From an uncultured Candidatus Saccharibacteria bacterium (GTDB lineage Bacteria > Patescibacteriota > Andersenbacteria > UBA10190): a stretch of 64,000 nt of DNA. The DNA is taken from positions 3,217 to 67,216 of the forward strand of contig CAYVFG010000003.1 of assembly GCA_964450915.1 (NCBI GenBank). Direction: 5' to 3'. Shown in pieces: positions 6,521-52,394 of the stretch. Position 1 is the stretch's first letter, and every line of letters starts with the position of its first letter. The position numbers and the translations under genes are program-made. The notes under the pieces were generated by a model, which worked only from the letters and a program-made list of their open reading frames with translations, was not told the DNA's origin and did not search any database.

Positions 6521-6775
6521 GGCATCTTCCTTTGTGTTGGAGATATGAATTGAGTTGGTGAGAGAGCTACGGCTATTCTGTGCTTTACAGCATTCCTTTG
6601 TCAATGATTTCCATTTTGAAAAACGGAAAGGCAAAAGCATTCGATTGTCAACGATAGAAGCTATTTGCAAAGCGCTTCCGTGCCAACCTGGAGATATCTT
6701 GGGATATAAGTAGGAGTGGGTACTGCATCAGCAAATAAGGAGGACTGTTTCTTGGAAAAATGAAATACGCCAATA

Positions 6776-6804
6776 TTGACAATATCAATCCGATAGTCTA
6801 TTAT
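6776..6804 (+). promoter_or_regulatory. sigma-70-type promoter
   Basis: TTGACA - 17 nt - TATTAT upstream of the 6841 ORF. Confidence 0.6.
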
Positions 6805-6840
6805 GATTGGCTGTAGGTGTTCGGATTGCACGTTATTCAC

Positions 6841-7272
6841 ATGAAAGGTTCAAGGGCTATGCGAATCGTGACGGAGTCAGGGGTTTCAACGGAAGCAGGG
6901 ATGCCGGTGGATGGCGGAATGACGATGAACGTCTTTCCGCTTGTTGAGAGATGGCTTGCTGAGAATGTCGATAGACTGCGTGCTCTGCAACACGTTGCGG
7001 TTCACAAGGGGATGGATCGATACCGATCCATGATCGATTTCCTGTTTTGCGAGACATTTATCGACTTCAAGGAGAGCTGTTTTCGTTTTTATGATCAGCG
7101 AGGGCCGGAGTTGAAAGGATGTTCACAGTTCAGCGAAGGGATTCGAACCCAGTGGGAGCGCCAGCTTCTTGTTGCGCTGGAATATGCGTATCGCATTTTC
7201 CAGTCAAAACGAGATATCACCTGGACGCTTTTCCGGCTCGAGTTTTTACAACTGGAACTCCTCGCCGCCTAA
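6841..7272 (+). CDS. hypothetical protein
   Basis: ORF bracketed by a consensus promoter upstream and a terminator downstream. No recognisable domain. The start is chosen downstream of the predicted TSS and is uncertain (6841 or 6856). Confidence 0.45.
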   Translation: MKGSRAMRIVTESGVSTEAGMPVDGGMTMNVFPLVERWLAENVDRLRALQHVAVHKGMDRYRSMIDFLFCETFIDFKESCFRFYDQRGPELKGCSQFSEGIRTQWERQLLVALEYAYRIFQSKRDITWTLFRLEFLQLELLAA

Positions 7273-19391: not shown

Positions 19392-22307
19392 ATGATGCGC
19401 GAAGTACCATCGCATGTGGATAGTAATTCCCTTGAGCGGGATGTTTTGACGTATTGGGATGAAGAGCAGATTTTCAAGAAGTCATTGGATCAAAACAAAG
19501 ATAAAAAGCAGTTTACGTTTTATGATGGCCCGCCGTATGCAACGGGCAAGCCTCATTATGGGCATGTATTGCAGTCCGCAATTAAAGATACGGTATTAAG
19601 GTATAAGACAATGCACGGATACTACGCTCCTCGCAGAGTAGGGTGGGATACGCACGGATTGCCGATTGAAAATATTGTTGAAAAAGAATTGGAGATAAAA
19701 ACAAAAAAAGATATCGAAAAAGATATCGAGGGTTTTAATCAAAAGTGTAAAGAAACAGTATATCGATATGTAGATATATTTAGAGATACGCTCAAGCGAA
19801 TTGGGCGATGGGCAGATTATGGAAATGAATATTCTACGCTTGATCGTAATTACATGGAGTCGGAATGGTGGGTGTTTCAACAGATCTGGAATCAGGATTT
19901 AATATATAAATCATTCCGTTCAACGCCATATTGTATTCGTTGTGCAACTCCATTGTCGAACTTTGAGGTTGGTATGGCATATAAGGATACGCGAGATATG
20001 AGTGTGTATGTTGCCCTTCGACAGGCTCAGGGCAAATCAGAAGTGAAGCTTCTGATTTGGACTACAACTCCCTGGACGCTGCCTGCCAACGTCGCCGTTG
20101 CGTATAATCCCGAGATTTCTTATGTAGTCGCAAGAAAAGATGATAAAGAATATATTCTTGCAAAAGATCGCGTTGCGCATGTTCTTGGTGATGAGGCTCA
20201 AATTGTTCGTGATATCGCTGTAGATGAACTTGCGGCGTATACATACGAGCCGTTGTTTGCATCAAATACGAGCGATGAAGATAAAAGTAAATCTTTTCGA
20301 CTAGTCGCAAGCGATCATGTGTCTGCGCAGGATGGTACCGGCTTGGTGCATATGGCGCCTGCCTTCGGAGAAGAAGATTTTAATGTGGCAAAGAAGAATG
20401 ATTTGCCCATCGTTCGAAATATAGACATGCTAGGCAATTATAATGCGGATGTTCCGATGTGGGCGGGTAGGAATTTATTTGATGCTCAGAAAGATATCAT
20501 AAAAGAGTTAGATAAAAACGGCGCGCTATTTAAGCGCGAGCTTATTACGCATAGCTATCCATTCTGCTGGAGATGCGATACGCCGCTTATTTACATGGCG
20601 CTTGATTCTTGGTTTTTGAAAGTATCTCAGATTAAAGAAAAGATGCTGGAGAATAATCAGCAGATTACTTGGATCCCGGAGCACTTAAAAGAAGGGCGAT
20701 TTGCAAAAGGTATAGAATCTGCGCCTGATTGGGCAATTTCTCGTAATAGGTTCTGGAGTGTGCCGATGCCTATTTGGGAATGCTTAGAATGCGAGGATAG
20801 AGTTTGTATTGGTAGTGTTGCGGAATTGCAGGAAAAATCGGGAGCTACGGATGAGCAAGTTCAAGACATTCATCGCCCATACGTAGACGATATTACGTGG
20901 TCGTGCGAAAAATGTTCTGGCACGATGAAGCGTATTCCGGAAGTTCTCGACGTTTGGTTCGATTCCGGAAGTATGCCGTATGCCCAGTATCATTATCCGT
21001 TCGAGAATAAGGAAATGGTTGAGGCGGGGTATCCGGCAGATTTTATCGCGGAGAGCATTGAAATGACTCGCGCGTGGTTTTACGTGTTGCACGTACTTGC
21101 AACAGGGTTAACGCAAAAAAATATTGGACTTGGCACAGATAAGCCGGCGTTTGTAAATGCAATCGGTTCCGGAATTATTTTCGCAGAAGATGGGCGCAAG
21201 CTTTCGAAGAAATTAAAAAACTATCCGGAAATTGAACCGGTGCTCGAGCAGTATGGTGCTGATGTACTTCGATTTTATCTGTTATCCAGCAGCGCACTCG
21301 GCGAACCATATAAGTTTTCCGAGAAAGACATGCGCCAGGTGCAGCGCAACGTGTATCTTACGCTTTGGAATGTGTATAGCATGTTCACTCGGTATGCAAA
21401 GGTTCACGGATTCGTTGCTGGTGCAGACGATGCGAAGTCTGCAAACTCTCTTGATCAATGGATTCTTGCTCGTACGCATCAGCTTATTCAGCATGTTACT
21501 CAACATGCAAACGCATATCGAATCGACTATGCAGCTCGAGAATTTGTTACGTATATTGATGATTTGAGCAATTGGTATGTGAGGCGTTCGAGAACACGTT
21601 TGCAGCATCCGGAAAACGACCAAGAAAAACAAGAAGTATTCGGAACGCTTTACACTGTTCTTGTTCGAGTAAGCAAAGCGCTTGCGCCATTCATGCCGTT
21701 TGTTGCGGAGGAAATGTATCGAAACTTAACAGGGGAACAGTCGGTGCATTTGGTTTCGTGGCCATATAAAATTTCTGATATGCCAAAGCCGGGGGCAGAA
21801 GATTCTTATGACACGGCGATTCTTGATAGAACAAAGCATGTTCGAGAAACGATTTCCGAAGCTCTTGCTACTCGCGCCGTTGCGAAAATCAAAGTACGCC
21901 AACCGCTTGCGCTGCTTGAATTGCCTGCATCTGCAGAAGAATTTTTCCCGGAAGATTTGGAAATGATTAAAGAAGAGGTGAACGTAAAGGAAGTAAAGAT
22001 TTCCGCCATTGATGCAATGAAATTGGATACGGAAATTACGCCATCACTAAAACAGGAAGGCATTATTCGCGATCTGATCCGGTATGTTCAAGGATTGCGC
22101 AAGCAAGCAGGATATGCCCTTGATGATAAAATTACGGTTGGACTTAAAACGGATAACCAAGAAATTCTTGATGCTGTGTCGTCGTATAAAGAAATGCTCA
22201 CAACCGCTTTGCAGGCAACGGGTATTGTTGATGTGCTAGAAAACGCTGATGCAAGTGAGGAAGTGAACTTGAGCGGTGCAACTGCAATAATTTCGGTGAA
22301 GAAATAA
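19392..22307 (+). CDS. ileS: isoleucyl-tRNA synthetase, type 2 (eukaryote-like)
   Basis: FYDGPPYATGKPHYGHVL (HIGH), KLSKKLKN (KMSKS), CP1 editing insertion. Start taken at MMREV. Confidence 0.9.
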   Translation: MMREVPSHVDSNSLERDVLTYWDEEQIFKKSLDQNKDKKQFTFYDGPPYATGKPHYGHVLQSAIKDTVLRYKTMHGYYAPRRVGWDTHGLPIENIVEKELEIKTKKDIEKDIEGFNQKCKETVYRYVDIFRDTLKRIGRWADYGNEYSTLDRNYMESEWWVFQQIWNQDLIYKSFRSTPYCIRCATPLSNFEVGMAYKDTRDMSVYVALRQAQGKSEVKLLIWTTTPWTLPANVAVAYNPEISYVVARKDDKEYILAKDRVAHVLGDEAQIVRDIAVDELAAYTYEPLFASNTSDEDKSKSFRLVASDHVSAQDGTGLVHMAPAFGEEDFNVAKKNDLPIVRNIDMLGNYNADVPMWAGRNLFDAQKDIIKELDKNGALFKRELITHSYPFCWRCDTPLIYMALDSWFLKVSQIKEKMLENNQQITWIPEHLKEGRFAKGIESAPDWAISRNRFWSVPMPIWECLECEDRVCIGSVAELQEKSGATDEQVQDIHRPYVDDITWSCEKCSGTMKRIPEVLDVWFDSGSMPYAQYHYPFENKEMVEAGYPADFIAESIEMTRAWFYVLHVLATGLTQKNIGLGTDKPAFVNAIGSGIIFAEDGRKLSKKLKNYPEIEPVLEQYGADVLRFYLLSSSALGEPYKFSEKDMRQVQRNVYLTLWNVYSMFTRYAKVHGFVAGADDAKSANSLDQWILARTHQLIQHVTQHANAYRIDYAAREFVTYIDDLSNWYVRRSRTRLQHPENDQEKQEVFGTLYTVLVRVSKALAPFMPFVAEEMYRNLTGEQSVHLVSWPYKISDMPKPGAEDSYDTAILDRTKHVRETISEALATRAVAKIKVRQPLALLELPASAEEFFPEDLEMIKEEVNVKEVKISAIDAMKLDTEITPSLKQEGIIRDLIRYVQGLRKQAGYALDDKITVGLKTDNQEILDAVSSYKEMLTTALQATGIVDVLENADASEEVNLSGATAIISVKK

Positions 22308-22756
22308 AAAGAGCCCCGGTCGCACATTTCTTTTTCAAGATATGTGCGCCGAGGCGAAAAGGTCTTCATTGCATGTCACTAATAAATGATTGCGCGGTCC
22401 AGGCCTGTTTATATAGGCGTTCCTAACAGGGAGGTCAACTCGATGAGTGATTCCACTGAGGTTTCTGGAGAAGTTCAATCATTATTGCCGATCATGCGCC
22501 GAAGGGTTCTTGTCGTTGCGAGGGAGGTTGAGGGTCGCGCGTCATCGTCACGTAACCGTGGTGTCCGTGAAGAGTTATCGTGTTCCTCATAGGCTCTCCT
22601 TTCTATCGGTTGGTGAACCGTCGCAAGCCAGCTGGATCAAGAGGGATCCTCCTTGTGATGTTTTTCAACTAATCTGATCGCTGGAGCAATACAGGTTTCG
22701 TTAGCACAAACATCACTATGTAAATGTGCTAGTTACTACTATATTCTTCCCGTTAT

Positions 22757-22780
22757 TTTTGTCAAATTATTTTGACAAAA
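22757..22780. promoter_or_regulatory. 10-4-10 palindrome TTTTGTCAAA-ttat-TTTGACAAAA (operator-like; left half doubles as a -35 box)
   Basis: Perfect inverted repeat. The same palindrome recurs at 51521-51544. Confidence 0.5.
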
Positions 22781-22789
22781 ATAAAACAG

Positions 22790-23133
22790 CCTCCGGAAGT
22801 GTTGAAACACTTCACGGAGGACTGGGCGCAGGGCTCAAAGGGTGATCAGTCTCTCGTTGATCAAGCCTTCAAGCCGGGCGCAAACCCTTCCACAGCGTCA
22901 TCTTAGCGGGCCGCAGACTAAAAGTCATTGCCATAAGTGGTCGCTTTCCACGCATTCGCGATCGTGGAAGGGGTAGACACGCTGCTAATCGCAGCGTACC
23001 TAGGGGGGCTCAAGAGGATGCATCGGGGCTTCCTTTGGTGGTAGACGAATTCGGTCCGGCTTACTTCGACACGCAACCATTGCGCATCAGTCGCCGACGC
23101 CGATCAGGCCAGGGCTGCGGTCGGGGCTTTTTT
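22790..23133 (+). ncRNA. rnpB: candidate RNase P RNA (type A-like, reduced)
   Basis: No ORF. Promoter-like TTGTCA-17-TAAAAC upstream. P4-like complementary strands AAGCCGGGC (22880-22888) and CCGGCUUAC (23056-23064), the latter within ACGAAUUCGGUCCGGCUUAC, which resembles the conserved ACAGAAnCCGGCUUA. Multiple GC-rich hairpins. Ends in a GC hairpin plus T6 terminator (23094-23133). Confidence 0.35.
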
Positions 23134-23337
23134 CAAACAATAGAGGGGAGAAGCGCTGCAACTGAGCCGACTGGGATCCTTCATGATGCTCCTTTCGAGC
23201 CTTGGGTTGGTGTGCTGATGGGTTGCATCCGCACGAAGAACAAAACTGACTTTAGACATAGTAGCTTTATGTTCTATTTTTGTCAAATCTATTTATACTA
23301 AAATAATAAAAAATTGCTTAATTGAGCAAAAATAAAA

Positions 23338-23520
23338 CCCCTGCGGTTAATGTACTCGATTGAGTAGATTAAAAGAGGGGCGAATATGCCCGGAGCGACT
23401 AAGAGATTGCTCGCTTGGTCCCCCGGTACACGCTCTGCAAAAACGCGGGCCAACGCTGCAGAGCTAAGACTGATGGAAAGGTGCAACTAACTACCGCTAA
23501 CCTAGCAGAGAGTTGTTTTT
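23338..23520 (+). ncRNA. candidate structured sRNA (unknown family)
   Basis: Preceded by TTTTTGTCAAAT box and an A/T-rich promoter-like region. Hairpins CCCCU...AGGGG, GAGCG...CGCUC, GCUCUGCA...UGCAGAGC. Ends with a T7 run. No ORF. Confidence 0.25.
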
Positions 23521-23540
23521 TTGTCAATAGGGGTGGTATA

Positions 23541-24176
23541 ATGATTAGTATTATGCCTTCTTCTCGTACCGTTTCCGCGCTCGTATTTTCCCGAAAAAAC
23601 ATCGGGGAGGCGGACAGATTGATGACCTTTTTTACTCAAGAAGAAGGGCTTATAAAAGTTATTGCAAAGGGTGTGCGCAAAATTCCGTCTGCAAGGGGCG
23701 GGCACTTGGAGCCGTGTACGCAAGTGCTTGCAAATATTTCAGAAAGCAAAGCCGGATTATATATGGGGAACGTAGAGACTCAGGATTATTTCCATGCATT
23801 GCGAGGCGATGCTGATGCATTTGCGCGAGCGTGCAAACACATAACGGTGTTCCAGCGGTTATTTACAGAGCGCCAGGCGGTTCCGGAGTTATTCGATGCT
23901 TTAGTCGCTGGATGGCAATTATATCCATCGCTATCGCCAGAAAAAAGGATTGTGATGGATGCTGCAATTTCGTTGCAGATTATTCAGCATGCGGGAGTAA
24001 TGCCCGATATGCGATTATGGGCCGCTTCTTCCGCCAAAGATAAAACTCCTCTCGTTGTGAAATATTTGGCAGAACACCCTGATCATGCGCCGCGCATTGC
24101 GTTGTCTGAAAACGACGCTCGCGGAGTTGCTCGGGTAATGAACGACCTGCTCGCTCGAACAGTGGTATACTCATAG
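23541..24176 (+). CDS. recO: DNA repair protein RecO
   Basis: The N-terminus (ALVFSRKNIGEADRLMTFFTQEEGLIKVIAKGVRK) matches the RecO OB-fold. An extended -10 (TGGTATAAT) overlaps the ATG, so the transcript may be leaderless and the true start may be the second ATG at 23550. Confidence 0.8.
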   Translation: MISIMPSSRTVSALVFSRKNIGEADRLMTFFTQEEGLIKVIAKGVRKIPSARGGHLEPCTQVLANISESKAGLYMGNVETQDYFHALRGDADAFARACKHITVFQRLFTERQAVPELFDALVAGWQLYPSLSPEKRIVMDAAISLQIIQHAGVMPDMRLWAASSAKDKTPLVVKYLAEHPDHAPRIALSENDARGVARVMNDLLARTVVYS

Positions 24177-34149: not shown

Positions 34150-34188
34150 CCGTATTGAGTGATTTCACTTAGTACGGCGATTTTTTTT
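34150..34188 (+). terminator. strong rho-independent terminator
   Basis: CCGTATTGAGTGA-tt-TCACTTAGTACGG 13-bp hairpin followed by T8. Confidence 0.8.
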
Positions 34189-34278
34189 GGCAAACTTTTT
34201 TGCCAACCCCGCGTAGCCTTGGCGAAGTGGGGTAGAAACACTATAGAGAATGCTAGTATTTCTCGATATACTTTCATT

Positions 34279-48685: not shown

Positions 48686-51604
48686 TTATTCGGCAAGCGA
48701 GGAAATTATTTGTTGTATCAATTCAGGCGTTATTGTATCGGTGTCCCAAGAGATCGTGCTTTCGCGTGCTTGCCAGCGGGCTGGTGTGCCGTTTTGATTT
48801 TTTATTGCAGATAATTTTTCGAGGATTTTAACTGGATCTTTTCCGGTTACCAGTAATCGAACGTACGGATCTTCGTCGTTTGGTCGAATTGTTTTTGTCT
48901 GCATTGCGGTAATTCCGCACGCTGTTGCGGCCTTTTCCAGCTGAATCATGAGCGACAAATTTTGCACTTCTTCAGGAATTGCTCCAAATTCTTCTTTCAA
49001 ATTTTTTATATAATTTTGTAATTGTTCAACTGACTTCGATCGAGAGAGGCGAATGTACCACATTGTTCTGGTGTCGGTATCTGGAATAAAGCTTGCAGGA
49101 ATATATGCGGGCAGCATTGTATGGATGTCTGCGCGTTGTATTTCTGTCTCTCCCGCATCATCAACCATATCGAGATACATATACATGCCGACTGCCGACG
49201 CAGAACCGCTTTGCTCGGCGCCCATTAGATTGCCCGCACCGCGCAACTCCAAATCTCGTCGTGCAATATCCCAGCCGGAACCTTGGCGAGTGGATTCCGT
49301 GAGGGCTGTTAAGCGCTGACGTTGCATGTCTGTTAATTTTTCTTGGGAGTATAGAAACAATGCATGACCTTGTCTTGAGCGTCTTCCGATTCTTCCTCGC
49401 AATTGATACAGCTGCGCTAATCCGAAGTGCGGAGCATTCCAAACAATCATCGTATTTGCATTTGGTAAATCCAAGCCGTTTTCAACGATACTGGATGAAA
49501 TCAAGATATCCAGTTGGTGTGTGTCAAATGCGTGAATGATTGCGCTCAGCTTTTCGTCGGGGAGCTTGGCATGTGCAATGGCGATGCGCGCATGGGGTGC
49601 AAGTGCTTGAATGGTCTCTTTAATCATCGCAAGGTTTCTAATCTTAGAAGAAACGATATATATTTGCCCGTCTCTATCTAATTCTTGAAATAATGCTTGG
49701 GTAAGCGCGCTATCTGAAACTTTTTTAATACTCGTTTCGATATTCTTTCTGCCTTTTGGAGCTGTTGCAATAACAGAGAGGCTTCGAAGGCCGGACAATG
49801 CCATGGATAGTGTTCGTGGAATCGGCGTTGCCGAAAGCGAGAGAACGTCGATAGTTGATCGCATCTTTTTTAAGTGCTCTTTATGCTTTACGCCGAATTT
49901 TTGTTCTTCGTCGATGATGAGCAAGGATAGATTTTGCCACGGGATGGAATTGCTCAGTATTGCATGTGTTCCAATGACGATAACAGGTTTGCCATCCGAA
50001 ATAATTTGCTTTGCTTTTTTTATTTCTTTTTGCGAAGAAAATCGTGAAATTAAAAAGATGGAATCCGATATATCGGATAAGCGTTCTTTAAATGTATCCG
50101 CATGCTGCTGGACTAACAGCGTTGTTGGTGCAAGCAGAGCGATTTGCTTGCCATTTGCGAATGCATGGCGGGCTGCGCGCATGGCAAGTTCCGTTTTTCC
50201 GAACCCAACGTCGCCGACCATGAGCCTATCCATGGGTATATCTTTTTGCATGTCTGATTGAATATCTTGCCAGGTGGTTGCTTGGTCTGGCGTCATTTCA
50301 TACGGAAAAGTCTCGTCGAGCTTTTTCTCGATAGTTGCATCTATATAATACGGGCTTCGTTTCGCCTTCTCGCGTTCTTTATTGATTGCGATAAGTTCTT
50401 TTGCGAATACAGCAGCATCGTGTTGCGCTTTTTTCTTTGTTTTTTGCCATAGGGTACCGCCTAAGCGATACAGTGCGGGCGAGCTTTCTCCTATATATGG
50501 GGATACTTTATGCGCAAACGCTACGGGTACGGAAAGCGTATCGCCGTCTGCATAACGCAACACAATATATTCTTGTTCCGCATTGTCTAACATCCTTTTT
50601 TCTAGCCCCTCAAATATTCCGATACCATGGTCTGCGTGCACTGCCGGCCTGCCGGGAGTAAGCGCTCCGATCAATTCCAGCGCTCGCTCTTGCGATATTG
50701 GCGATGAGTACGTCTTCGAAGATTTGCTGATAGCTCCAGGGATTACGGGCATTTGAATTTCTTGCAATCGTGTTGGTAGTATAATGTCCGGATGTTTTGA
50801 AGCTGTAATAATAGTTGTTGCAGTAGGGAAGTGCGCTTGCTGAGGAGCTATAACAACAAATTTTTTAAATGCTGTTTCAAGCTTTTCTGTTTTTTGTGGG
50901 AATGAGAGCGGAGGAATTGCAACGGAGTGTTCGTTTTTTGCACGATTCTTTTTTCGAACAATAATTTTATCAATCGTATTCCCAAAAAAAGAAATAGAAA
51001 TAGGATGCTCAAAAAGAGGATGCGAGATGCGCGCTTCATCTCCTATAATATAAAATCCGGACCCGGCTTGTTTGCTGCTGTGGCGAATATATCCTGTTGA
51101 TACTAATGTTTTTGCAAGTTCTGTAATGGAGTACGTTTGGCCGAGAGTGAGATGAAGGATGCGTGCTTGATATTCTTCGCTGCTCGGAAATTGCATGTCT
51201 GCAATACTTTTCGGAACATAGTATGATCTGGGGAGATTACTAAGGAGCGCATGAGCGGATGTTGAGAGTTTTGTAGATATAGTACCGTCCAGTTCTTGCT
51301 CTGTGAGCTGGTCGGTGATGATATGTTCTATTCCCCATTGTTCTGCCGAATGGGTCTCGGTATGCGAGCTTATGAGCGCAATAGGAGAAGTGATTTTGCC
51401 CGAAATCGTGCTTGCGAACATCATATTGAGATTTTCGGGTATAGAAACGAGCACCTTTTCAGGGGAAATTGTCAGTTCCGTTGAGACGTCATGCAGAAAC
51501 TCCTCCCATTCTGGTTGGTATTTTGTCAAAATGCTTTGACAAAATTGAGATAGGCCTATGATTGACATTCTTATATTGTTACTGTACATTCTGTTTTCAA
51601 GCAA
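48686..51604 (-). CDS. mfd: transcription-repair coupling factor Mfd (compact form)
   Basis: RNAP-interacting domain, DEAD/DEAH helicase motifs (GDVGFGKTELAMRAA, TATPIPRTL), TRG motif, C-terminal D7. The start is uncertain and may be an internal ATG near 51424, which would leave the 51521-51544 palindrome intergenic. Confidence 0.8.
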   Translation of the reverse strand: MLENRMYSNNIRMSIIGLSQFCQSILTKYQPEWEEFLHDVSTELTISPEKVLVSIPENLNMMFASTISGKITSPIALISSHTETHSAEQWGIEHIITDQLTEQELDGTISTKLSTSAHALLSNLPRSYYVPKSIADMQFPSSEEYQARILHLTLGQTYSITELAKTLVSTGYIRHSSKQAGSGFYIIGDEARISHPLFEHPISISFFGNTIDKIIVRKKNRAKNEHSVAIPPLSFPQKTEKLETAFKKFVVIAPQQAHFPTATTIITASKHPDIILPTRLQEIQMPVIPGAISKSSKTYSSPISQERALELIGALTPGRPAVHADHGIGIFEGLEKRMLDNAEQEYIVLRYADGDTLSVPVAFAHKVSPYIGESSPALYRLGGTLWQKTKKKAQHDAAVFAKELIAINKEREKAKRSPYYIDATIEKKLDETFPYEMTPDQATTWQDIQSDMQKDIPMDRLMVGDVGFGKTELAMRAARHAFANGKQIALLAPTTLLVQQHADTFKERLSDISDSIFLISRFSSQKEIKKAKQIISDGKPVIVIGTHAILSNSIPWQNLSLLIIDEEQKFGVKHKEHLKKMRSTIDVLSLSATPIPRTLSMALSGLRSLSVIATAPKGRKNIETSIKKVSDSALTQALFQELDRDGQIYIVSSKIRNLAMIKETIQALAPHARIAIAHAKLPDEKLSAIIHAFDTHQLDILISSSIVENGLDLPNANTMIVWNAPHFGLAQLYQLRGRIGRRSRQGHALFLYSQEKLTDMQRQRLTALTESTRQGSGWDIARRDLELRGAGNLMGAEQSGSASAVGMYMYLDMVDDAGETEIQRADIHTMLPAYIPASFIPDTDTRTMWYIRLSRSKSVEQLQNYIKNLKEEFGAIPEEVQNLSLMIQLEKAATACGITAMQTKTIRPNDEDPYVRLLVTGKDPVKILEKLSAIKNQNGTPARWQARESTISWDTDTITPELIQQIISSLAE
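51521..51544. promoter_or_regulatory. 10-4-10 palindrome TTTTGTCAAA-atgc-TTTGACAAAA in the mfd/trmB-like divergent region
   Basis: Perfect inverted repeat with half-sites identical to the element at 22757-22780. Followed by TTGACA-17-TACATT promoter-like spacing before the 51612 ATG. Confidence 0.5.
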
Positions 51605-51611
51605 CCCCCCT

Positions 51612-52394
51612 ATGGAATTTATCCAAGAATTAATGAGCTTAGGTTTGAAGGATAAGCAAGCATCCGTCTATCTTTCGTGTCTGCAATTAGGGCCTTCTCC
51701 TGCCCAGTATATAGCAAAAAAGGCTGACGTAGTGAGAGCTACGACGTACGTGATCTTAGAAGAGCTGATGGCGTTAGGGCTTGTGACGAAATACAAGGAA
51801 GGGAAGAAGACCATGTTTTCCGCAGAAGCGCCTCGGCAATTATTGCGACTACTCGAAAAGCAAGAAGAGGAAATCCAAGAAAAACAAAAAGATTTGGAGC
51901 AAATTTTGCCAGAATTGCAGATGCTTACAAAGGCACTAGGCGACAAACCGTCAGTTCGATACTTCGAGGGGAAAGAGGGTTTAGCTGCAATTCGAAGAGA
52001 TTTGGTTATGTATTCACGCCCAGAGGATACCATCTACAATTTTACTCCTGCTGACCATCTTGTGGGCGTTTTCCCCGATGACGAGCATACGAACTATGTG
52101 CAGCGTGTTGCGAAAGGAATTAAAGGTAAAACGATATTTTCCACAACTTCTGAACAATTGAGAAAGTATTGGTCATCTCAGGAGTTTAGTCGACATACAG
52201 AACGAAGGTATGTTCCGCATAATAAGTTTCCTGTTCCAGCAGGCATGACGATTTATCGAGACAGGGTTGCTATTGGATCGTTTACTGGTAAATTGTTTGG
52301 TGTAATCATCGAAAGCGAGCAAATGGCAAACATGATGCGAGCGCTGTTTGATCTTGCTTGGGAGTCTGCAAAAAGCATTGACGAAAAAGAATAA
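51612..52394 (+). CDS. TrmB-family transcriptional regulator
   Basis: N-terminal winged HTH (LGLKDKQASVYLSCLQLGPSPAQYIAKKADVVRATTYVILEELMALGLV) plus C-terminal sensor-like domain. Start at MEFIQ. Confidence 0.7.
   Translation: MEFIQELMSLGLKDKQASVYLSCLQLGPSPAQYIAKKADVVRATTYVILEELMALGLVTKYKEGKKTMFSAEAPRQLLRLLEKQEEEIQEKQKDLEQILPELQMLTKALGDKPSVRYFEGKEGLAAIRRDLVMYSRPEDTIYNFTPADHLVGVFPDDEHTNYVQRVAKGIKGKTIFSTTSEQLRKYWSSQEFSRHTERRYVPHNKFPVPAGMTIYRDRVAIGSFTGKLFGVIIESEQMANMMRALFDLAWESAKSIDEKE

Follow-up and report, generated by a model that had tools for sequence, protein, structure and literature searches.

Repressors that act over the -35 element of a promoter are dimeric helix-turn-helix or winged-helix proteins, e.g. 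of the MarR, XRE or TrmB type, and several regulators with half-sites of broadly similar form are recognized by their consensus boxes: TTGTGAA-N4-TTCACAA for Rex, TGTNA-N7-TNACA for TnrA/GlnR, and the repeat GGTCAAA for CtsR. The archaeal TrmB/TrmBL1 sugar regulators use a palindromic site designated TGM (TATCAC-N5-GTGATA), and cupin-type glucose-6-phosphate isomerase (PGI) genes form a typical target class of TrmBL1. To our knowledge, almost nothing has been learned about transcriptional regulation in the Patescibacteria, or candidate phyla radiation (CPR), which have very few regulators and for which no genetic system is known. Here we describe a perfect palindrome that occurs at two distant loci in a 64,000-nucleotide stretch of DNA (henceforth the window) from an uncultured member of this group in the Andersenbacteria lineage (GenBank assembly GCA_964450915.1, contig CAYVFG010000003.1, positions 3,217 to 67,216). 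The palindrome is real and conserved, and at the first locus its left arm is the -35 element of a strong minus-strand promoter. We favor the reading that it serves as an ordinary repressor-type operator for a dimeric protein, centered near position -37, and on the comparative evidence set out below we give this reading about an even chance.

The element consists of two perfect 10-bp arms separated by a 4-bp spacer, which places the half-site centers approximately one helical turn apart. It reads TTTTGTCAAA-TTAT-TTTGACAAAA at site 1 (22757-22780, TTTTGTCAAATTATTTTGACAAAA) and TTTTGTCAAA-ATGC-TTTGACAAAA at site 2 (51521-51544, TTTTGTCAAAATGCTTTGACAAAA), in both cases precisely where an earlier note, made by inspection of the letters alone, had placed identical inverted repeats; at site 1 the arms are complementary out to 14 nt (22753-22784). 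The core can be written as TGTCA-N8-TGACA or, equivalently, as TTGTCAA-N6-TTGACAA. The note's argument that such a recurrence is unlikely by chance is also borne out, as none of 100 dinucleotide-preserving shuffles of the window yielded any match and the window itself holds no third copy even when up to three mismatches are allowed. The palindrome is non-random and specific. The half-site 10-mer alone, with one mismatch permitted, is not enriched in the window (13 observed, 10.9 expected). The 9-mer TTGACAAAA occurs 6 times in the 64 kb against an expectation of 1.38, with all six copies at the two dyad loci, and the remaining good TTGACA promoters of the window are devoid of the A-tail. Both dyads are intergenic, and a 470-kb contig of a relative carries the same two sites. 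Readings of the palindrome as a parS, dif or uptake-signal sequence or as an RNA hairpin were dropped, given that there are only two copies and that the stem is AT-rich; its sequence also matches neither parS nor dif. A full-text literature search for the 9-mers returned only primers and papers on miR-223, and a literature search on Andersenbacteria returned nothing about regulation. A second palindrome of the same geometry with a symmetric base swap, TTGGCAAA-CTTT-TTTGCCAA, is found at 34186-34207, just after a terminator-like hairpin and T-run (34150-34189) and ahead of an AAA-ATPase gene that starts at ~34280 and is putatively RarA-like, judged by its sequence.

Site 1 belongs to the 1.2 kb that separate ileS (stop codon at 22307) from recO, the longest run of non-coding DNA in the window. 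This spacer (22308-23540) is an array of three minus-strand transcription units, here termed A, B and C. In each of them, a GC-rich structured body lies between a consensus promoter and an intrinsic terminator. A scan for consensus promoters placed its best-scoring sites on the minus strand. The earlier note was right that the palindrome overlaps a -35 element, but the promoter concerned runs on the strand opposite to the one that the note had assumed: the left arm supplies the TTGACA (22765-22760) of the unit A promoter (22738-22765, minus strand), which continues after 16 nt with the -10 element TATAGT (22743-22738) and matches the consensus at 11 of 12 positions. With the start of unit A taken to lie ~7 nt past TATAGT, the center of the dyad (22768.5) falls at about -37. 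The half-sites that the note had reported ahead of a small RNA and of recO are likewise present, one exactly (23278-23287) and the other as TTTTGTCAAT (23519-23528), and they too belong to sigma-70-type promoters. Neither of them, however, precedes a plus-strand feature or forms one half of an operator; both are plain -35 boxes, belonging to the paralogous promoters that drive units B and C.

The palindrome is retained in the orthologous promoters of relatives, a point on which the earlier note had made its proposal depend. At orthologous positions five genomes have it in perfect form, and four more diverged ones have an imperfect version whose TGTCA-N8-TGACA core is intact. The core is invariant in nine independent sites, namely the two of the window and those at L055, L128, L129, L132, L001, L003 and L216 (L-numbers denote loci of other genomes), and the spacer between the arms is fixed at 4 nt in nine sites. 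In the unit A promoter the dyad is perfect in the window, L124 and L055, where L055 is an 86%-identical relative (GCA_021414205.1); it reads TTTTGTCAAA-TATT-TCTGACATAA in L128 and TTTTGTCAAG-AAAT-TATGACAAAA in L129, and in L132 it stands ahead of a different cargo as TTTTGTCAAC-TATT-TCTGACAAAG. Between the window and L055, dyad 1 with the unit A promoter is 98% identical, against 82-83% for the flanking genes. Dyad symmetry is seen at two loci, and at both the half-sites are conserved while the surrounding non-coding DNA diverges; at site 2, L004 and L218, which are the most distant relatives, no longer have the dyad. A non-random, -35-overlapping and conserved element fits the earlier proposal of a dimeric operator; the setting of that proposal beside an rnpB gene and its use of the isolated half-sites as operator halves are not supported.

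Site 2 belongs to the control region of two divergent genes: mfd on the minus strand, with dprA behind it, and, on the plus strand, a gene for a TrmB-like regulator of 260 aa. The center of dyad 2 precedes the mfd ATG by ~40 nt and the inferred trmB-like start by ~65 nt. The trmB-like gene has its own promoter, TTGACAttcttatattgttactgTACATT (51562-51590, plus strand; TTGACA, 17 nt, TACATT), and mfd has a Shine-Dalgarno sequence, GGGAGGAG, 7 nt upstream of an ATG at 51492-51490 (the two spanning 51490-51508, minus strand). In the relatives L001-L004, gene callers start mfd ~25 codons further upstream (959-960 aa), which would place the palindrome inside the coding sequence; the start at ATG 51492, giving a protein of 935 aa, is the better-supported one. 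The mfd-trmB-like synteny is conserved, and dyad 2 is perfect in L001, L002 and L214, carries one change in L003 (TCTGACAAAA), and retains 17 of 20 positions in L216 (TTTTGTCAAT-ATAT-TCTGACATAA). In L216, the arms match the window at 17/20 positions, as opposed to only 8 of the 17 nt that separate the dyad from the trmB-like -35 element, which points to constraint on the dyad itself. Neither arm of site 2 has a -10 element that is conserved among relatives. A site that is conserved without being a promoter constitutes the strongest argument that the palindrome is bound by a protein.

The two outward-facing arms also invite the explanation that they are simply the -35 boxes of two back-to-back divergent promoters, with no further factor involved. 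Both arms do read TTGACA on their own strands, the right arm of site 2 in the window is followed after 15 nt by TATGAT, and the CPR loci L017 and L116 each have an arm with a good -10 element. At site 1, however, the plus-strand arm has no -10 element and runs straight into a terminator hairpin, and at site 2 the position where the left arm would require its -10 is occupied by the mfd Shine-Dalgarno sequence. The TATGAT is specific to the window and is lost in L002, L003 and L216 although the arm is kept, and in relatives the right arm changes to CTGACA or ATGACA while the left arm stays constant. We therefore consider back-to-back promoters highly improbable.

At site 1 the left arm, on the minus strand, provides the consensus -35 element (TTGACA plus an A-tract) of the unit A promoter, and the second arm lies one helical turn further upstream, at approximately -43 to -52. 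Under the operator reading, a dimeric DNA-binding protein occupying both arms would compete with RNA polymerase for the -35 box and repress unit A. As the unit A promoter is already near consensus, repression by occlusion is probably a better fit than class II activation. This protein would also bind the second copy, which lies in the control region common to the mfd-dprA operon and the trmB-like gene; from there it could prevent transcription of mfd-dprA or else alter the activity of the promoter from which the regulator itself is expressed.

Several observations weigh against this reading. Full sites in the 64 kb number only two. The left arm is always better conserved than the right and never varies, although unequal evolution is also what would follow if one arm were doubly constrained, as a -35 box and as a half-site. 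In the B-type promoters the position of the distal arm is taken by nothing more than an A-rich TCAAAAT, so that part of this arm is what an UP-like element would supply, leaving the G and C of TGACA unexplained. One sample, represented by L128 and L216, has the same asymmetric right arm, TCTGACATAA, at both of its loci, and this shared arm looks more like a directional element inherited by descent than like the product of independent selection on symmetric half-sites. Dyad 2 has decayed to 14 of 20 positions, with no change in length, in L004 and is gone in L218, although the TrmB-like protein there is still 73-79% identical. A Saccharibacteria genome has a TrmB-like gene with no dyad in its own upstream region, and a tblastn search with three members of a small XRE subfamily, considered below as an alternative source of the binding protein, found no homologue in the window.

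A different explanation dispenses with a dedicated regulator and takes the palindrome for a by-product, arising from promoter architecture together with shared descent: the consensus -35 element and its flanks (ATTTGACAAAA), an UP-like element and the T-tract of the preceding terminator would together compose the dyad, and the copy near mfd would be the relic of a duplicated promoter module. All module promoters do share aTTTGACAAA(a/t) together with the A-rich TCAAAAT at -40 to -46, a stretch similar to the -35 flank in reverse complement, and the four Ts of the right arm of site 1 are the end of the unit B terminator T-tract. The mfd copy also resembles the unit A promoter further into the spacer (TTGACAAAA(A)TA...AGAAT), without a -10 element, and the module array has clearly been rearranged by duplication and deletion; the identical asymmetric right arms at the two loci of one genome would likewise be accounted for. 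This explanation stumbles over the G and C of the distal TGACA, which are invariant in nine sites whereas an UP element needs only A/T. It also leaves unaccounted for the persistence of the distal arm in L132, where CCAC sets it apart from the T-tract, and in L129, where there is no upstream terminator. More broadly, the neighbor upstream of the distal arm varies between a B terminator, a C terminator, the recO promoter (L129) and the T-tract set apart by CCAC (L132), and the arm is consequently not simply a terminator tail. Finally, a non-functional relic between mfd and the trmB-like gene should not outdo the neighboring 17 nt in conservation. We regard this by-product origin as doubtful, though as an alternative that deserves to be taken seriously.

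The units served by these promoters merit description in their own right. Unit A (~22310-22732, minus strand) is a structured RNA of ~420 nt whose terminator, a hairpin at ~22315-22355 followed by CTCTTTTTATTT, abuts the ileS stop codon. Unit B (~22785-23250, minus strand) is a GC-rich RNA of ~460 nt with a folding z-score of -4.7 on the minus strand and -3.5 on the plus strand, transcribed from a promoter at 23258-23287 with TTGACA (23286-23281, coincident with the half-site that the earlier note had placed at 23276-23287), a 17-nt spacer and TACTAT; the spacer contains a block, GAACAT, that is kept in six lineages. Its terminator comprises a hairpin (22790-22827) and, beyond it, the tract TTTTATTTTTG; this extends into dyad 1 such that the right arm begins within the last four Ts of the tract. 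Unit C (~23330-23492, minus strand) is an RNA of ~160 nt that ends in a hairpin (~23342-23385) followed again by TTTTATTTTTG. Its promoter (23499-23528, minus strand) combines TTGACA (23527-23522), 17 nt and TAGGTT, the last of these being TAGGAT in L055 and TAGGGT in L124. The -35 box of unit C falls within the spacer of the recO promoter, and the two divergent promoters physically overlap. On the plus strand, recO has an extended -10 element, TGGTATAAT (23534-23542), and its start codon (the two together spanning 23534-23555) is ATG 23553 with an alternative at 23541; the recO mRNA appears to be nearly leaderless, as the extended -10 element ends 10 nt before ATG 23553.

Several lines of evidence bear on the strand of these units. 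Each ends in a hairpin and T-tract in minus-strand orientation, and the T-tracts are found after the hairpins on the minus strand only; a simple terminator scanner had missed all three because the stems contain bulges. In the unit A terminator, U.G pairs on the minus strand correspond to C.A mismatches on the plus strand, and relatives show compensatory changes. The unit C stem, when compared between the window and L055, has a compensatory change of UUAAU/AUUAA to UCAAU/AUUGA. These features mark the minus strand as the transcribed one for units A-C, which sets site 1 downstream of the unit B terminator and makes it part of the unit A promoter.

Rfam searches of the 1.4-kb spacer on both strands returned nothing at the gathering threshold, nor at E<=10 with permissive filters, and searches of the window, of the loci of five relatives and of nine CPR loci returned nothing relevant. 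For the rnpB gene that the earlier note had proposed at 22790-23130, in what is now unit B, neither strand matches Rfam at E<=10, the covariance models of bacterial RNase P included, and the segment is moreover absent from L055. Unit C, which the note had taken for a second small RNA, is also without an Rfam match, as is unit A. Transfer-messenger RNA, signal recognition particle RNA and 6S RNA were rejected for the spacer for want of an Rfam match, and ARAGORN likewise found no transfer-messenger RNA. A covarying 5' hairpin is common to units A and B; behind it come a conserved GAAAGGAG, 5-9 nt and an AUG (opening M-K/R-D/S-P...). This arrangement is located at 23150-23215 and 22590-22610 in the window and is present also in units of L126, L128, L129 and L132. 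In unit A, the GAAAGGAG/AUG segment (22590-22610) is predicted to pair with CCUCAACCUCCC. The open reading frames (ORFs) behind this segment vary in length and are poorly conserved, with 23 aa versus 32 aa in near-identical relatives, and a conserved small protein is therefore unsupported; units A and B may be either regulated small-peptide mRNAs or RNA motifs. A search of viral contigs with the ribosome-binding motif of unit B matched only unrelated gene starts of high-GC phages.

Comparison of the genomic contexts of RecO homologues established that the ileS-recO spacer ranges from 467 to 1752 bp and that the set of modules differs in every relative examined. L124, whose RecO is 99% identical to that of the window, has units A-B-C as in the window; L055 (86%) carries A and C but no B; L126 (79%) carries a B-type unit alone; L128 (76%) carries A and B; and in L129 (69%) a B-type unit and an unrelated one are accompanied by an A-type unit adjoining recO. 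Relatives with 45% RecO identity have no modules, and a metagenome scan with the RecO alignment added two more close relatives and no new dyads. Throughout, every module promoter consists of aTTTGACAAA(a/t) followed 16-17 nt later by a variable hexamer of -10 form, e.g. TACTAT, TATCGT, TACGAT, TAAGAT or TATGAT. More than 12 homologous promoters in relatives keep the -35 hexamer and the spacing while the -10 sequence varies in a form-preserving way, as would be expected of real promoters. The layout of the unit A promoter in particular is kept in L055, L124, L128 and L129, where the -10 element varies as TAnnnT or ACACTA-like sequences. Unit A as a whole is 92% identical between the window and L055, as compared with 82% for the 3' end of ileS and 83% for recO, and it is under stronger purifying selection than these neighboring housekeeping genes.

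This turnover of modules raises the possibility that the dyad is a recombination or insertion site through which RNA cassettes are gained and lost. Each relative does carry a different module set in its spacer, and in L055 unit B is missing exactly at a repeat that overlaps the right arm. The segment missing in L055 corresponds to 22788-23326 of the window, and B-type homologues are present in L126 and L128. The junction lies exactly between the 12-bp direct repeats CAAAAATAAAAC (22776-22787 and 23327-23338), which are terminator T-tracts, and the absence of unit B can therefore be ascribed to an ordinary deletion. Most module junctions, in addition, have no dyad, site 2 has no modules, and no recombinase gene is found nearby. 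A role in cassette exchange is in our view scarcely credible, and even when it is pooled with the back-to-back promoters discussed above, the two explanations together are very unlikely. Two further features of the array were noted. Despite the 99% RecO identity to the window, the 5' third of unit A in L124 (2230-2690) is closer to L055 than to the window, suggestive of recombination within the array. In L132 (1600-2385, minus strand) and L134 (1028-1873, minus strand), the array includes an ORF of 261-281 aa that belongs to no Pfam family. The L132 promoter is of the module type (TTGACA-17-TATGAT), the L134 -35 element is TTGACT, and a conserved leader, GGAATATGGCATATG..GCCATTTCCAC, lies upstream of both ORFs.

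If the palindrome is an operator, the regulator encoded next to site 2 is an obvious candidate for its binder, as the earlier note had also pointed out. The gene (51612-52394, plus strand) codes for a 260-aa protein with a match to Pfam PF01978 (E=3.8e-11). Only its N-terminal winged helix, comprising approximately the first 100 residues, matches known families. Against the NCBIfam models of TrmB and TrmBL1 it scores 20.7 and 24.2 bits over residues 2-103 only, so far below the respective cut-offs of 600 and 650 that an identity with either was rejected. It has no homologue in the PDB and no recognizable sugar-binding C-terminal domain, and no identical product is on record. Searches recovered 348 homologues (E<=0.001), of which those with a source name are mostly labeled Candidatus Andersenbacteria; the closest is 97% identical and comes from GCA_021414205.1, and full-length homologues occur in at least three CPR lineages. 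The position of the dyad beside the trmB-like gene, as expected of an autoregulatory site, is kept in six genomes. A 36%-identical TrmB-like orthologue in a Saccharibacteria genome (L017) lies 540 bp from a copy of the palindrome. A second co-occurrence, in Buchananbacteria (L024), was discounted because the palindrome there lies inside the polA coding sequence. These associations are circumstantial, and we put forward the TrmB-like protein as a possible binder only tentatively. The spacer of the trmB-like promoter is almost invariant down to 73-79% protein identity, including in relatives that have no dyad, and may, on this pattern of conservation, represent the real autoregulatory operator of this regulator.

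The L017 locus has a further feature of note. Between its palindrome and the TrmB-like orthologue lies a GC-rich RNA of ~400 nt (6740-7160, minus strand) that has no Rfam match and converges on the 3' end of the orthologue. It has a terminator and its own promoter (TTGACA-16-TACATT), and the palindrome is ~170 nt upstream of this promoter.

Beyond these relatives, a scan of one genome per species with the pattern TTTGTCAAA-N4-TTTGACAAA recovered at least 118 loci. Among the matches listed these are scattered over many phyla at one locus per genome, the exception being an Andersenbacteria relative with the same two sites, a distribution which argues that the palindrome does not mark one broadly conserved regulon. 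An arm followed by a -10 element at 16-18 nt is found at 42 of the 118 listed loci versus ~8% in controls, and at 9 of the 10 CPR loci. In Dojkabacteria, two diverged members retain both arms in perfect form ahead of orthologous genes for cupin-type PGI (PF06560), with flanks and spacer that differ; here the palindromes (L019 3585-3606, L106 2124-2145 and L047 1891-1912) occupy the -35 region of the PGI gene promoter. In other, unrelated genomes (L038, L091, L092, L114, L118, L121 and L095), the 22-mer caps a perfect hairpin that is much longer and has GC-rich clamps, e.g. cgccccgaTTTGTCAAA....TTTGACAAAtcggggcc, and this use is a different one, terminator-like or repeat-like.

Another association in this wider set is with a single subfamily of small XRE-type (HTH_3) regulators. 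A gene for such a protein, of 63-74 aa, is located within 700 bp of the palindrome at 10 of the 118 loci listed (L022, L033, L081, L061, L058, L099, L072, L108, L052 and L030), which derive from Bacillaceae, Leuconostoc, Bacteroidota, Mogibacterium, Treponema and Rubneribacter and represent four phyla. In four Bacillaceae, the palindrome is situated between a TATAAT -10 element and the Shine-Dalgarno sequence of the XRE gene, and by comparative inference it would be the autoregulatory operator of the small XRE regulator in those other phyla. Together with the conservation in Dojkabacteria, this linkage suggests that the palindrome sequence is used as an operator elsewhere. On this alternative, the dyads of the window would be operators as well, but of a small XRE/Cro-type repressor encoded elsewhere in the genome, outside the window, and this protein is the main alternative binder to the TrmB-like one. 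The probability that all 10 genes would lie so close by chance is ~0.175^10, assuming random positions within 8-kb blocks. Yet the absence of a homologue from the window extends to ~100 kb of related Andersenbacteria loci, where the same three tblastn queries found no match, and none of the 10 CPR palindrome loci has such a gene nearby. An XRE binder for the dyads of the window consequently seems to us quite unlikely.

At its most ambitious, the operator reading can be extended to a regulatory code shared by Andersenbacteria, Saccharibacteria and Dojkabacteria, in which the dyad would be a TrmB-like operator that controls the RNA modules A, B and C and their relatives as well as mfd-dprA; we deem this full version unlikely. 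Were it true, one factor would control a family of RNA modules that are structured, abundant and as yet undescribed, and the mfd-dprA repair/competence operon, and a glycolytic gene in Dojkabacteria. Even the simpler proposal of an operator at the two sites would, if correct, provide a first handle on a regulon in CPR bacteria, with a short list of candidate binders. For the local annotation the outcome is a correction, as the ileS-recO spacer holds three strongly promoted minus-strand RNA modules and not rnpB and a plus-strand small RNA. As a probable operator of the common kind that overlaps a -35 element, the palindrome is in itself no surprise; more unusual is the array of RNA modules, of unknown class and without Rfam matches, beside it.

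How, then, does the palindrome compare with the described systems? With the operators of repressors that overlap the -35 element it shares the perfect inverted repeat, the half-sites approximately one turn apart, the overlap with a consensus -35 element, and the presence of a second copy in the divergent control region of a regulator gene, the classic layout of autoregulation; it differs in that the candidate operator is known from two sites. The resemblance to the UP element plus -35 element of rRNA-type promoters lies in a consensus -35 element that is directly preceded, at -40 to -55, by A/T-rich DNA and in the abundant-RNA type of the genes, with the difference that the distal TGACA has an invariant G and C which an UP element does not require. 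Among the consensus boxes, the half-site is similar to that of Rex (TTGTCAA vs TTGTGAA), but the spacing is N6 here and N4 for Rex; it is similar to that of TnrA/GlnR (TGTCA...TGACA vs TGTNA...TNACA), but with N8 instead of N7; and it is similar to the CtsR repeat (TGTCAAA vs GGTCAAA), but in an inverted rather than a direct arrangement. An identity with any of these boxes was rejected on the grounds of spacing or orientation. The autoregulatory operators ascribed to the small XRE/HTH_3 regulators have identical arms, TTTGTCAAA-N4-TTTGACAAA, but differ in that the Bacillaceae site is downstream of the -10 element and not over the -35 element, and in that the regulator gene was not found in the window or in related loci. 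The archaeal TrmB/TrmBL1 (Tgr) systems, lastly, differ in their DNA motif, in their C-terminal sugar-binding domain, which is not recognizable here, and in their targets, which in the window would be an RNA gene and mfd-dprA as opposed to sugar metabolism. What these archaeal systems and the locus have in common is the TrmB-type winged helix encoded by the neighboring gene and, in Dojkabacteria, a palindrome that precedes a cupin-type PGI gene.

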